This document shows positions 32,120 through 44,807 of a stretch of 64,000 nucleotides of DNA, in pieces (position 1 is the first letter of the stretch; each line of letters begins with the position of its first letter). The notes below the pieces were generated by a model. That model did not search any database and was not told the DNA's origin. It saw nothing but the letters and a program-made list of their open reading frames with translations. The stretch comes from Pseudomonadota bacterium (lineage in GTDB: Bacteria; Pseudomonadota; Gammaproteobacteria; JAKAQQ01), in assembly GCA_027320085.1 (NCBI GenBank), contig DAHVLZ010000009.1, forward strand, positions 96,001 to 160,000, in the 5' to 3' direction. The position numbers were made by a program, and so were the translations under genes.

Positions 32120-32164
32120 TCACCTCCAGGATGCGGAGTGAGGAACACGCCCGGGCCCACGCCC

Positions 32165-32244
32165 GCAAGCCTTCCCTCCGCCGGTTCTGACCGGATCAGG
32201 TTCCAAGGGTCTCTCTCAGCCCACCCAGGGCACCCCCAGCTTGC
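32165..32244 (-). ncRNA. TPP riboswitch
   Basis: Minus strand GCAAGCTGGGGGTGC...GCTGAGA..GACCC..GAACCTGATCCGG..AGAACCGGCGGAGGGAAGGCTTGC directly upstream of thiC; TGcTATACT extended -10 at about 32277-32285. Confidence 0.96.
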
Positions 32245-32295
32245 CCGGTCGACACAACTCGGCCGACCAGAATCTCAGTATAGCAAGCCGACGCA

Positions 32296-40535: not shown

Positions 40536-41389
40536 ACCCGGAAAGAACCCCGAGATCCCGGCTCCACTCCGTCTTCCGAACGCTGGCCTTGGGCTTGCTG
40601 GGACTGGGAGCGCTGGCCGGATCGGTCCGTGCCGACGGACGACTTCTCGAGCGGGCCCCCGCGTCCAACCCGTGCGTCGGACGTTATGCCTTGCTGGCCG
40701 TGCTCGATCGGCCGACCGTGGCGGACAGCAGTTGCGTCGTCCGACCGGGCCACGTGGTCATCGAGGCCGGTTACGCCCACGCGACCCTCTACCCCTCCGG
40801 TAGCGGACATGGCTGGGATGCCCCTCAGATGGAAGTCCGGTTCGGACTGCCTCACGAGAACGAACTGGTTGTCCTGCCACCCAACCGGGTAGCCGCCCCC
40901 GGTGCCGATGGCTACACGGGCTCGGTCGTCGGGCTCAAGCATGAGTTCGATGTCTCAACGACCTGGCAGTTCGCCGCGGAAAGCCTGGTGACCCTCCCTT
41001 CCGGGGATCCCAATCAGGGGAGCGCGGGGACCGGTGTCGCAATCAACGGCGTCGCGAGTTACAGCCCCTCCTCGACCGTCGGGCTGTCTCTCATGGCCGG
41101 TTTTACGTCGGAAACCGAGCCCTCAAACCTCGGGGGCGGCCGCTACACGAGCTTCAATCCCGATGGCGTCGTGACCTGGGAATTCCTGCCGCCTTGGCAG
41201 CTTTACTTCGAGGTGTACGGGGCCACTCATACCGGCGTGGGACAAGGGAGCGGTTACGATGCCGATGGAGGGGTCCAGATCCTGCTCAGCCGCAACATGG
41301 AGATCGATTTCGAGGCGGGCACCCGGCTCTCGGGGAACCTGGGTGGTTACTCCCACTATGTCGGTGCCGGACTCGGTCTCGAGTTCTGA
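40532..41389 (+). CDS. putative outer-membrane beta-barrel channel (Phenol_MetA_deg/transporter-like)
   Basis: Signal peptide, DRP motif, alternating beta strands, C-terminal GLGLEF. Confidence 0.7.
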   Translation: MNPERTPRSRLHSVFRTLALGLLGLGALAGSVRADGRLLERAPASNPCVGRYALLAVLDRPTVADSSCVVRPGHVVIEAGYAHATLYPSGSGHGWDAPQMEVRFGLPHENELVVLPPNRVAAPGADGYTGSVVGLKHEFDVSTTWQFAAESLVTLPSGDPNQGSAGTGVAINGVASYSPSSTVGLSLMAGFTSETEPSNLGGGRYTSFNPDGVVTWEFLPPWQLYFEVYGATHTGVGQGSGYDADGGVQILLSRNMEIDFEAGTRLSGNLGGYSHYVGAGLGLEF

Positions 41390-41423
41390 GCCGCCCGCTC
41401 GGCATCGAACCTGCCCTCGGGCC

Positions 41424-41451
41424 TTGACAGCGGCCGATCCGAGATTAGAAT
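41424..41451 (+). promoter_or_regulatory. sigma70 promoter
   Basis: TTGACA (41424-41429), 16 nt spacer, TAGAAT (41446-41451). Confidence 0.8.
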
Positions 41452-41457
41452 TCCCGC

Positions 41458-41785
41458 TGTCCCGGCCACTAGGGAGACCCATGGGCAGTAGCCGCCCTCA
41501 TCACCTCCGGAGTGGCTCGGTGCGATCCCGCAAGCGGTTCTTCTGACCGTGGGCGGTGCGCTCGCACCAGCCACGGCAAACGAAACCGCGCCATCAGGCC
41601 AGGGTTGGACCAACCCCCACGAGGGTGGTACACGCGGCTTCACCATCCGGAAATTCCCGAAAACCCATCCCGCCTGCCACTCTCGGGTGCCGGGGTACCG
41701 GGGGTGGGTAGGTGCGCTGCCCGGAGACGTGCCATGACGGCCATGATTCACAGACGGGTGCCGCTGCGGACCCGGAGGAAAGGCG
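41458..41785 (+). promoter_or_regulatory. long structured 5' leader with uORF (candidate attenuator)
   Basis: SD-led 21 aa uORF 41481-41546, hairpins at 41547-41576, 41602-41616 and 41663-41709, alternative pairings. Confidence 0.6.
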
Positions 41786-43156
41786 GTGAAAACTCCCCTC
41801 CGGACTGAGCCGGGGTCCGTGACGGACACGGTCGCTCTGCCCGAGGACGTTTCCCTCAGGCTCGCCGACCGGCTCCATGTCCATGCACTGAGACATGGCC
41901 AGGCCACCCTGTGGAACCGCCTGCTTCTGGGACTCACCCTGATCGGACCCGGGATTCTCGTCATGCTGGGTGACAATGATGCGGGCGGGGTGGTGACCTA
42001 CATGCAAACCGGTGCCCGCTACGGAATCGGTCTCTTCGTCCCCCTCATGATCCTCCTGGGATTCGTGGCCTACCTGGTCCAGGAAATGACCATCCGTCTG
42101 GGTGCCGTAACCCGGCGCGGGCACGCTGAGCTCATCTGGAAGCGCTACGGCCCCTTCTGGGGCGCCTTCTCCCTTTTTGATCTCGTGGCTGCGAACGTTC
42201 TCACCCTCATGACGGAGTTCATCGGCATCCGGGTCGCCAGTGCGGTGTTCGGCTGGCCCTACGCCCTGACCATTCCGTTGGGCGCCTTGTTCGTGGTGCT
42301 CTGCCTCGTGTATCTGCGTTACTGGACCTGGGAGCGGATCAGCCTGCTCATCGCGGCCTTCAACCTGGTTTTCATCCCGATCACCCTCCTCTCGCACCCG
42401 GACTGGTCGGCCATCGGACGCAGCCTGGTGGGTGGGGGTTGGATCCTGACGGGCGGATTGCTGGCCCCCGCCTTCCTGATCCTGCTCTCAGCCAACATCG
42501 GAACCACCATCGCACCCTGGCAACTGTTTTTCCAGCAGTCTTGCGTGGTCGACAAGGGACTCTTGGAGAAGGACATCAATGCCGGACGGCGTGATCTCAT
42601 GATCGGCGTGATCGGCATGGTGCTCGTGGCCATGGCGCTCATCATCCTGAGCGGGCAGTACATCCACGGTCAGGCCGGGGCCGACCGTTTCAGCATCGGC
42701 ACCATGATCCATCTCCTGGAGATCCGGCTCGGGCCCTGGATCGCGAGCCTGTTTGCCCTGGGACTTCTCGAGGCCGGCCTCATCGCCTCGATCGTGATCA
42801 CGGCGAGCACCTCGTGGGCGTTCGGCGAAGCCTTTGATATCCCTCGCTCACTCAATGCCCGGCCCCGGCAGGCCTGGGGGTTCTATGCGCCCGGAATTGT
42901 GAGCGTGCTCATCGCAGCTGGCGTGGTGATGATCCATGCCATTCCGCTCGGTTTCCTCAATCTCACAGTCCAGGTGGTCGCCACGATCTTCATGCCGGCT
43001 GCCCTCCTGTTCCTGCTCATGCTGCTCAATGACCGGGAACTCATGGGGGATGAGGTCAATGGACCCGTCCGCAACACCCTGTCCATCGGCCTCATGGCCC
43101 TGCTCATCCTGTGCAACGCACTCTACGGTCTCGCCTCCTTCCACGTCCTTTTCTAG
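41786..43156 (+). CDS. Nramp-related divalent metal transporter, NRMT (Mg2+)-type
   Basis: GPGILVMLGDNDAGG (DAGG instead of DPGN), QEMTIRLG, GTTIAPWQLFFQQS (instead of MPH), LNDRELMG. Confidence 0.88.
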   Translation: MKTPLRTEPGSVTDTVALPEDVSLRLADRLHVHALRHGQATLWNRLLLGLTLIGPGILVMLGDNDAGGVVTYMQTGARYGIGLFVPLMILLGFVAYLVQEMTIRLGAVTRRGHAELIWKRYGPFWGAFSLFDLVAANVLTLMTEFIGIRVASAVFGWPYALTIPLGALFVVLCLVYLRYWTWERISLLIAAFNLVFIPITLLSHPDWSAIGRSLVGGGWILTGGLLAPAFLILLSANIGTTIAPWQLFFQQSCVVDKGLLEKDINAGRRDLMIGVIGMVLVAMALIILSGQYIHGQAGADRFSIGTMIHLLEIRLGPWIASLFALGLLEAGLIASIVITASTSWAFGEAFDIPRSLNARPRQAWGFYAPGIVSVLIAAGVVMIHAIPLGFLNLTVQVVATIFMPAALLFLLMLLNDRELMGDEVNGPVRNTLSIGLMALLILCNALYGLASFHVLF

Positions 43157-43170
43157 GCCAGGTGCCCGTC

Positions 43171-43365
43171 ATGAAAGAACTCGACGAATATGACCCCCAG
43201 CAAATTCGCACTCTCCTCGAGCAGGAGCACTGGCTGGATCCTCTGCCGCCGGTCCGACGGGTTCCGCTGGCGGGTTGGCAGCGGGCGGTCTTCTGGGGGC
43301 TCCGGATCTACATCGTGATCATGATCGTGGTCGTCGCCTGGGGGTTTTCACGCTCTTTCGGTTGA
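43171..43365 (+). CDS. small single-TM protein downstream of the NRMT gene
   Basis: MKELDEYDP...PLPPVRRVPL...FWGLRIYIVIMIVVVAWGF; 14 nt after transporter stop. Confidence 0.75.
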   Translation: MKELDEYDPQQIRTLLEQEHWLDPLPPVRRVPLAGWQRAVFWGLRIYIVIMIVVVAWGFSRSFG

Positions 43366-43993
43366 GCCGCGACGTCGTTCGAAATCTGGCCGGTCCGGCC
43401 GTTCTCCGATCCGCCCGGGGGGCGTCACCCCGGTAGAGCCAGGCGAGCTCGGCAGACCACTCCAAGGCGGCGAGATGATGCCAGGCCTCTTCCAGGCTTG
43501 CAGCCGCCGAGTAGACCCCATGGCCCCGCACGATCGCCAGGGGGTACTCCCGCAAGGACTCAGACACCGCCCGGGCCGCATCCTCAAAGGGGGTTTCGCG
43601 GGAACTGTCCACGATCGGTACGCGGGGGAAGCTGAGGCGGCCTTCAAAATCAAGGGGCTCGAATGAACTTTCCCCGAGCAGGCTCATAGCTACGCTGTAA
43701 AGACCATGACCATGAAGCACGGCACCATGGGTTTCCTGCTTGCGATAGGTTGCACAATGGAGGGGGGCATCCCAGGATGCGCCGGCTGGAATTTCCGAAT
43801 CAAGATCCAAAAGAACCAGTTCTGCCTCGGTCAATTCCTCTGCCCAAGCGCCATGCGGGGTGATCCAGACCTGCTTCCCAAGACGGAGAGAGGCGTTCCC
43901 ACTATGGGGATCATTGAGGCCGTACTCCCGCATACGGCGGTAAATCCGTACGAGATCACCGGGTGTCGTGGTGGCAGGGCGTTGGGCCGACAT
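43319..43993 (-). CDS. class II aldolase/adducin family protein
   Basis: SGNAS, ITP, LH...Y, AVLHGH, RGHG. Confidence 0.88.
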   Translation of the reverse strand: MSAQRPATTTPGDLVRIYRRMREYGLNDPHSGNASLRLGKQVWITPHGAWAEELTEAELVLLDLDSEIPAGASWDAPLHCATYRKQETHGAVLHGHGLYSVAMSLLGESSFEPLDFEGRLSFPRVPIVDSSRETPFEDAARAVSESLREYPLAIVRGHGVYSAAASLEEAWHHLAALEWSAELAWLYRGDAPRADRRTAGPARFRTTSRLNRKSVKTPRRRPRS

Positions 43994-43994
43994 C

Positions 43995-44807
43995 TCATAT
44001 CCCCCGTTCGAACCTAATCTGGTGAACCCGGCTGTCGATGCGACCATCGGACCAGAGACGGTAGCTCCGCCAGCCCCCCCAACCGGTCTCGATCATGAAG
44101 TCCGAGCAACCCAGCACGAACTGCATCGCGCTGGAGGGAGTTCCATAGTAGCGGATCCCACCCACGACTGTCTCGAAGGCGGCATGGATATGCCCGAACA
44201 CAACCGCCCGTACCGGCGATCCGTTGAGCTGGGTCACCCAGTTCCGGTCACCCGACGAAAGACCAATCCTATCGAGCCAGGCGGTCCCCGTCTCCACGGG
44301 TGGATGGTGAAGCGCCACCAGCGTCGGGACCGGGGGTTCGTGGGCGAGTGCTTCCACCAGCGCGGCACGGTCACCTACGTCGAGGCGACCCTCCACGTGA
44401 CCTGGCCAGACCGTATTCAGGAGCAGAATGCGCCACGGACCGAGCTGGATGCGCCGGGGCATGAGGGATTCACCGAAGAACTCACGCATGATCCGCTCGT
44501 CATCGTGGTTGCCAGCCAAAACGTACCAGGGAATGGCGGTCCTGGCCATCAGACGCGCGAGTCGACGGTAACTATCCGGGGTACCCTCATGGGCCAAATC
44601 CCCCGTCAGGAGGAGACAGTCTGGCCTCTCCTCTTCCACCAGGGCCGAGCAGATCCGGGCCAGTCGGGCCTCGGGCTGGACTCCGGATTTGAGCCACCCA
44701 TCTGGGTCGGCCAGAAGGTGCGGGTCGGAAATTTGGATGAGGCGGAAACACCTCTCAGCCGAGCAGTCCCGGCCCCGGGTCACACCCAGATCTTGCCTCT
44801 CGGACAC
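43995..44807 (-). CDS. cpdA: 3',5'-cyclic-AMP phosphodiesterase (metallophosphoesterase)
   Basis: QISDPHL, TGDL, GNHD, LHHPP, FGHIH, TPS..QF; GAGGAG SD before GTG 44807. Confidence 0.85.
   Translation of the reverse strand: MSERQDLGVTRGRDCSAERCFRLIQISDPHLLADPDGWLKSGVQPEARLARICSALVEEERPDCLLLTGDLAHEGTPDSYRRLARLMARTAIPWYVLAGNHDDERIMREFFGESLMPRRIQLGPWRILLLNTVWPGHVEGRLDVGDRAALVEALAHEPPVPTLVALHHPPVETGTAWLDRIGLSSGDRNWVTQLNGSPVRAVVFGHIHAAFETVVGGIRYYGTPSSAMQFVLGCSDFMIETGWGGWRSYRLWSDGRIDSRVHQIRFERGI

Follow-up and report, generated by a model that had tools for sequence, protein, structure and literature searches.

The gene for an NRMT-type transporter of the SLC11/Nramp family in an uncultured gammaproteobacterium is preceded by a conserved, narrowly distributed cis element in which an upstream open reading frame (uORF1) lies within competing RNA helices. 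The element opens a leader of about 328 nucleotides (nt), which runs from about position 41458 to the GTG start codon at 41786 of the DNA analysed here (64,000 nt of contig DAHVLZ010000009.1, assembly GCA_027320085.1, positions 96,001 to 160,000; hereafter the window). It is probably a form of Mg2+ control of the leader open reading frame (ORF) kind and, by sequence, a new variant of it, for which both sensing and output are proposed below. We put at roughly 45% the probability that the leader is a switch that depends on its ORF and is read by the ribosome, analogous to mgtL/mgtA and corL/corA and unrelated to them in sequence. A first-pass annotation, made from the letters of the window, had pointed to this leader as a ribosome-dependent attenuator for Mg2+ or another metal, or a new riboswitch class. 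The near-consensus promoter, the Shine-Dalgarno (SD) sequence and uORF1, the hairpin directly after the uORF1 stop and the second uORF overlapping the transporter start (uORF2) are all present as it described them. The idea of mutually exclusive helices was also right, and the pair that is conserved consists of a 5' hairpin with a post-stop hairpin (arms B and C) on one side and a helix between arms A and C on the other (Table 1).

Conservation was assessed within the GTDB family, which comprises 10 genomes in three genera. Four leaders come from the genus of the genome under study (G000; its congeners include G002), one comes from a second genus (G005) and three from a third (L007, L008 and L009). 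Orthologues of the transporter, 67-98% identical, occur in eight of the nine other family genomes; DNA upstream is available for seven of these eight, since in G007 a contig end interrupts the leader; G009, which is 73% complete, yielded no orthologue. The promoter, the SD and uORF1 recur in the three congeners and in G005, as does a 33-nt core (41466-41498) in which no letter differs between the two genera, even in the 7-nt apical loop of the 5' hairpin. In the alignment both promoter hexamers are kept in all four same-genus sequences and in G005, and no other site of this type lies within 41000-43600, where shuffled sequences average 0.4 such sites; transcription would start near 41458. Conservation of the uORF among homologous leaders was a point on which the first-pass idea could be judged, and uORF1 keeps its start, length and stop position in five of five genomes from the two genera. 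Its peptide has 12 of 21 residues in common between the genera, and the nine that differ fall mostly in the C-terminal half. The transporters of these two genera are 80% identical, and their leaders no longer align beyond about base 60-120. The DNA that precedes the -35 hexamer in G005 cannot be aligned with that of the congeners, which suggests that the leader travels with the transporter.

The first 120-135 nt of the transcript are predicted to fold in two ways. In state 1, a 5' hairpin pairs GCCAC with GUGGC, GGAG with CUCC and GGGC with GCCC, burying the SD and AUG of uORF1, and the same fold is predicted in G000, G002 and G005. Twelve of its 14 pairs are invariant within the genus. Support for it comes from the comparison between genera, where the stems are invariant and each lineage has its own letters in the internal loop (codons 6-8). 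The second component of state 1 is the post-stop hairpin, the base of which is extended by pairing of the last codons of uORF1 with 41582-41589. At the same place G005 has a hairpin of 9 base pairs with wholly different letters (-19.2 kcal/mol, reached by 15 of 1000 shuffles).

State 2 is built on arm A, which lies inside uORF1 and leaves the 5' hairpin to pair with arm C, enclosing an inner hairpin. The A:C helix is the RNAalifold consensus of the four same-genus leaders. All 13 of its pairs are formed in every one of them, and one shows a compensatory change (41525-41562, which is G-C in G002 and A-U in the other three). The duplex reaches -25.7 kcal/mol here, a value attained by 7 of 1000 shuffles, and G005 re-forms its equivalent with other letters as a helix of 12 base pairs (-20.6 kcal/mol). 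Thus, mutually exclusive stem-loops overlap uORF1 in silico, as they do in leaders of the MgtL/CorL type.

Folding of a growing transcript suggests how the two states may succeed each other. The 5' hairpin forms first in the model, and state 2 is the minimum at 120 nt. By 135 nt the minimum has gone back to state 1 in G000 (-64.8 vs. -58.5 kcal/mol for state 2) and in G005 (-57.1 vs. -53.8 kcal/mol), and G002 keeps state 2 with a narrow margin of 0.3 kcal/mol (-60.6 for state 1 vs. -60.9 for state 2), so the gap between the states is 0.3-6.3 kcal/mol. When a ribosome-sized block is placed on the start region of uORF1, the model yields state 2, and when it is placed on codons 6-7 it yields the B:C hairpin. 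These blocks shift the winning fold alike in G000, G002 and G005.

Table 1. Features of the leader and the transporter gene, in window coordinates.
Feature	Position	Strand	Details
Sigma-70-type promoter, TTGACA-16 nt-TAGAAT	41424..41451	+	11 of 12 positions match
5' hairpin (state 1), predicted	41465..41516	+	41465-41470 with 41511-41516; GGAG 41473-41476 with CUCC 41505-41508; 41483-41486 with 41494-41497
SD of uORF1, AGGGAG	41471..41476	+	4 nt upstream of ATG; invariant in 5 of 5 genomes
uORF1	41481..41546	+	21 codons and TGA
Arm A, inside uORF1 (codons 11-15)	41512..41525	+	Pairs with 41465-41470 (state 1) or arm C (state 2)
Inner hairpin of state 2, uORF1 end and stop codon with arm B	41527..41558	+	11 pairs, none varying within the genus
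Post-stop hairpin, arm B (41547-41559) with arm C (41564-41576)	41547..41576	+	-20.9 kcal/mol; 10 of 1000 shuffles as good
Arm C in state 2, paired with arm A	41562..41574	+	13 base pairs, one bulge
C-rich, G-poor spacer, possible Rho loading region	41607..41684	+	33 C and 16 G in 78 nt
uORF2	41734..41808	+	GGAG at 41723-41726; overlaps transporter start at 41786
Transporter-SD hairpin	41772..41803	+	SD 41772-41778 with 41797-41803; 7 pairs
NRMT-type SLC11/Nramp transporter	41786..43156	+	456 amino acids; GTG start, GGAGG upstream

The particular helices named in the first-pass annotation fared less well than the idea behind them. Its pairing of 41488-41499 with 41621-41631 is strong here (-18.1 kcal/mol, 2 of 1000 shuffles) but is not conserved, falling to -10.1, -9.1 and -7.2 kcal/mol in three congeners through partner changes that are uncompensated. 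The alternative partner, 41551-41557, gives an unremarkable duplex (-16.4 kcal/mol, 51 of 1000 shuffles) that shrinks to about 4 base pairs in the second genus, and two congeners lack an intact stem at 41602-41616 (both by manual reading, the latter of the alignment). Covariation among the leaders therefore gave a divided answer, with one compensatory pair in the A:C helix and no compensation in the pairing of 41488-41499 with 41621-41631. Two long-range pairings suggested by the single-sequence fold, of the uORF1 region with 41684-41722 and of 41461-41466 with 41809-41814, were likewise set aside on manual reading, as their partners change uncompensated in the congeners.

The identification of the transporter as NRMT-type is borne out. 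It matches the Pfam Nramp family (2.3e-60), and its best solved relative is EleNRMT, a Mg2+ transporter of Eggerthella lenta (7QIA, 8.9e-45), with MntH chains at about 1e-9. Its metal-site motifs DAGG and TTIAPW are identical to those of 7QIA in the alignment, which places it in the NRMT clade; the NRMT site is described as keeping the Asp, with Asn changed to Gly in helix 1 and Ala to Thr and Met to Ala in helix 6 (PMC8806188). One congener has ATG where the GTG start codon stands here. Searches of the genome under study (96% complete) for CorA and MgtE gave nothing, the MgtA model reaches at best 48 bits there (cut-off 610), and CorA turned up in none of the 10 family genomes. Since CorA, MgtE and MgtA gave no match above cut-off, the transporter appears to be the one protein of this genome that can be recognised as belonging to any of the four known classes of Mg2+ importer, and it presumably carries Mg2+. 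As in systems of the MgtL/CorL type, a short ORF preceded by an SD would thus stand in the leader of a Mg2+ importer gene. The Mg2+ part of the attenuator suggested in the first-pass annotation therefore stands on the gene family, on the riboswitch that precedes homologous genes (the M-box, below) and on the gene content of the genome, which offers no other importer, and not on the RNA itself. The genome also encodes two further Nramp paralogues (G000:C30:20599-21732 and G000:C1:261909-263075), one of them a canonical MntH with DPGN/MPH motifs and the other with an unusual DVGS/IMPW site.

Downstream of the switch, the next 145 nt vary within the genus and include indels whose lengths are not multiples of three. 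The C-rich spacer lies here; its C/G ratio of 2.06 is reached by the top 1.5% of the 78-nt stretches in the window, and a rho gene is present in the genome. The GGAG and ATG of uORF2 fall within a 30-nt island that is nearly invariant in the genus. In three of the four same-genus genomes uORF2 is 18 codons long, and its closing GTGA or ATGA takes in the start codon of the transporter; here a 1-nt difference extends it to 24 codons, and its peptide is not conserved. The transporter SD lies in a conserved hairpin with CCUCCGG, 20 nt further on, in which two of the seven pairs carry compensatory changes, and it is mostly paired in every modelled state. Pfam holds no family for either uORF peptide or for four other long overlapping ORFs (three antisense, one sense), and a hidden gene in the leader is disfavored because of the non-triplet indels among congeners. 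When contigs from three metatranscriptome runs were compared with 41200-42400, a single diverged fragment matched within the gene and none matched the leader.

In the mechanism that we propose, the strong promoter would fire and the first 120-135 nt would adopt one of the two folds. State 1 would close the ribosome-binding site of uORF1 in the 5' hairpin, with the B:C hairpin following the stop, and state 2 would open that site as arm A moves to arm C. A ribosome on the start or first codons of uORF1 would force state 2, one further into uORF1 would cover arm A and leave B to pair with C, and without a ribosome the 5' hairpin would re-close. Because the position of the ribosome selects the fold in the folding model, the level of uORF1 translation may set the fold. 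The signal would be cytoplasmic Mg2+, or something else that alters translation of the invariant first codons. The fold would then decide whether transcription or translation reaches the transporter, most likely through Rho acting on the C-rich spacer, and ribosomes translating uORF2 would open the buried SD of the transporter. By analogy with known leaders, we favor attenuation by Rho under the control of uORF1 translation, with translation of the transporter coupled to that of uORF2. A more specific version would be a ribosome-read Mg2+ sensor of a new sequence type, in which pausing or abortion on the invariant first codons flips the 5' hairpin to the A:C helix and so sets expression of the sole Mg2+ importer; the M-box, CorA and MgtE would have been lost from the lineage, and its sister genus would have evolved another, unrelated leader. 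This fuller account is tentative and, taken whole, rather unlikely.

Several observations weigh against a ribosome-read switch. The uORF1 peptide is strongly basic, has one proline and no hydrophobic stretch, and contains no Asp or Glu in the same-genus sequences, unlike MgtL or MgtQ; the acidic and proline codons characteristic of MgtL/CorL-type peptides are thus not found in it. Substitutions in uORF1 between the genera are spread evenly over codon positions (6, 6 and 8 by manual count), and with no codon periodicity the case for its translation comes from the conserved SD, start and stop, on which uORF1 is nonetheless likely to be translated. Only two independent lineages carry both folds. 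The 5' hairpin is not unusually stable (94 and 90 of 1000 shuffles fold as well in the two genera), and 22 of the 25 state-1 pairs are invariant within the genus and so uninformative either way. The A:C duplex of G005 is not rare (73 of 1000 shuffles), making the second genus the weaker evidence. The leader has no intrinsic terminator, terminator-like sites occurring only at 41082 and 41186, upstream of the promoter, and no GC-rich hairpin with a U run follows the leader ORF as in a classical trp-type attenuator. The C-rich stretch is marked in only two of the five leaders, the relatives having ratios of 1.43-2.06. Forcing state 1, forcing state 2 or covering uORF1 produced no consistent change in the modelled accessibility of the uORF2 and transporter ribosome-binding sites. 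Finally, an NrmT without a riboswitch is described as behaving as a Mn2+ transporter (Shin et al., PMC4072509). Thus, of the first-pass proposal of a ribosome-dependent attenuator in place of an M-box, the kind of control is the best-supported part, whereas the helices it named are not conserved, and neither a terminator nor a Rho site nor a ribosome-binding site under regulation could be linked with the switch.

The leader matches no known RNA family. The 4227 models of Rfam 15 were run over the window at their gathering cut-offs and over 41300-41950 at E<=10, and no family matched the latter region, including yybP-ykoY and the enterobacterial mgtA leader; the first-pass impression that the leader was neither an M-box nor yybP-ykoY thus holds under an Rfam scan. 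At E<=1 there were no matches in the relatives' loci L004, L005, L007, L008 and L009. The M-box (RF00380, cut-off 44 bits) is absent from the window, from 41300-41950 and from all 10 family genomes. It lies upstream of the gene in 10 of 71 homologous metagenome loci, these being the loci with at least 300 nt upstream among 79; three of the calls (L037, L070 and L053) were made by Rfam at 118-128 bits and the other seven by a profile built from those three. We found no paper joining NrmT with a leader peptide.

Searches for further copies of the element itself returned little beyond the family. An exact 21-nt part of the core occurs in only four records among 185,579 species genomes, all of them 'Proteobacteria bacterium' bins and presumably the family members described above. 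A covariance model of the 5' hairpin scored only the genome under study (97 bits) among 151 genomes of the class, with all other matches at E>0.04, and found nothing below E 1 in 88 loci. The metagenome scan recovered 79 homologous loci, only three of them closer than 57% identity.

Relatives of the transporter carry leaders of other kinds. In the third genus, which is the sister genus, a different conserved leader of about 310 nt precedes the orthologue (L007:345-660; L008:2855-3170, minus strand; L009:1125-1450). It has its own promoter (TTGCAA-17 nt-TACAAT), a long hairpin, no Rfam match, and a GTG-initiated ORF of 27-28 codons that lacks an SD and in which all three indels are of 3 nt. By eye this ORF shares 'SRP...R[ST]GS' with uORF1, but homology was rejected, as local alignments of DNA and peptide stay within shuffles; one gapped peptide match between uORF1 and L007, different from the one seen by eye, is reached by 2 of 200 shuffles and was discounted. 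The closest metagenomic relative (L035, 66% identity) has a 10-codon mini-ORF at 1195-1227 whose first 11 nt are those of uORF1. It sits inside a hairpin that sequesters its SD and is followed by a strong hairpin, the 3' arm of which repeats the first letters of the mini-ORF; the DNA match to uORF1 is marginal (13 of 300 shuffles). In L036 (65% identity) a uORF of about 64 codons (about 1227-1421) follows AAGGAGG and ends in ATGA on the transporter start codon.

A further set of mini-ORFs was noted in the metagenome loci. An Asp-Ser-Pro codon pattern occurs in mini-ORFs at 16 of the 79 loci, two of which look unrelated; the other 14 loci hold 15 such 'DSP' mini-ORFs of 14-29 codons and four types upstream of NRMT homologues (for example, L059:902-946, L064:1030-1101, L098:791-865 and L041:1231-1290), and in L064, L089, L076 and L098 an M-box lies further upstream. 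Like uORF1, these have an SD, stand in an NRMT leader and are followed by a hairpin, and their first residues are similar by eye; unlike them, uORF1 lacks the Asp-Ser-Pro core. Against a profile of the set, uORF1 scores 3.5 bits, 17th of 465 when ranked with random short ORFs from the window; for a profile of the two types most like it the figures are 4.8 bits and 10th of 410, and the leaders show no DNA similarity. Because these ranks are random-like and DNA similarity is lacking, uORF1 should not be filed with the 'DSP' mini-ORFs.

Other readings of the leader have to be weighed against the ribosome-read switch. If the leader were constitutive, with hairpins that stabilize the mRNA and uORFs that load ribosomes and open the transporter SD by coupling, no sensing would be needed, and an SD paired in all modelled states beside a uORF2 that abuts or overlaps the start codon is what such a leader would show. 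The lack of a terminator and of a consistent modelled difference downstream between the two states fits it as well. We nevertheless consider it unlikely, as it leaves unexplained why two exclusive folds around uORF1 are kept across genera while the letters of their arms change, and why the core is invariant, loop included, while neighboring loops vary. Direct sensing by the RNA, in which the 5' hairpin or the balance of the folds would respond to Mg2+ or another ligand and uORF1 would serve as the expression platform only, appears quite unlikely. Invariance of the core and its apical loop goes beyond the needs of base pairing, homologous genes use a metal-binding riboswitch, and the between-genera substitutions lack codon periodicity, all of which fit such a sensor; yet none of the Rfam models matched, the covariance model found no further copy, and the conserved part is a simple hairpin switch of 120-135 nt with no multi-helix junction. 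The direct-binding sense of the 'new riboswitch class' in the first-pass annotation thus found no positive evidence.

The invariant core could also be bound by a factor acting in trans, either a protein or a small RNA, which would control uORF1 or the RNA close to the promoter. Invariant letters in the loop and spacer and the 11-nt identity at the start of the L035 mini-ORF are in keeping with such a factor, but no partner is known, the L035 match is marginal and, on manual reading, the palindrome CCCATGGG is not kept there, so that we regard this as improbable. That the uORF1 product is a small protein functional in its own right is hard to credit: the start, length and stop of the ORF are conserved, but the C-terminal half of the peptide has drifted between genera, it is basic, with no hydrophobic stretch or Pfam match, and the ORF lies inside competing helices.

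Two observations concern the window outside the leader. Its sole Rfam match, which scores 57.2 bits where the cut-off is 54.3, is a minus-strand thiamine pyrophosphate (TPP) riboswitch (32155-32247). On the plus strand, a 1001-codon ORF at 43968-46973 matches acetyl-CoA synthetase only from residue 342 and overlaps a convergent aldolase gene (43319-44047); its true start is thus probably much later.

If the switch read by the ribosome is real, a family from acid mine drainage controls its sole recognisable Mg2+ importer by a leader ORF unlike mgtL, corL or the M-box in sequence. Three leader solutions would then precede one orthologous gene, namely the M-box, the uORF switch and the leader of the sister genus, which would make this a compact case of regulatory turnover. 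It would also add to hints of ribosome-based Mg2+ sensing well beyond enterobacteria. Its reach is limited, as the element is carried by only five genome bins of uncultured organisms.

Among known systems, the M-box (ykoK) occupies the same position before homologous NRMT genes, as also described by Shin et al. (PMC4072509), but it is a ligand-binding three-helix aptamer with a terminator, whereas the leader described here is a candidate uORF switch. The mgtQ-mgtB leader of Salmonella, in which translation of a small ORF is described as freeing a ribosome-binding site held in an inhibitory stem-loop (PMC8092293), resembles uORF2 and the transporter-SD hairpin in having a small ORF just upstream of a sequestered SD. 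It differs in that mgtQ has 8 codons, of which the acidic ones matter, while uORF2 has 18-24 codons and an unconserved peptide; by this analogy uORF2 and its hairpin likely play an mgtQ-like role. The mgtL/mgtA and corL/corA leaders of Salmonella and E. coli precede genes of a different transporter family, show no likeness in sequence or Rfam model, and encode acidic, proline-rich peptides in place of a basic one with a single proline. In these systems the efficiency of uORF translation is described as inversely related to expression, with Rho involved (PMC11552253). Like the present leader, they are long, precede a Mg2+ importer gene, lack an intrinsic terminator and carry an SD-preceded ORF within alternative stem-loops.

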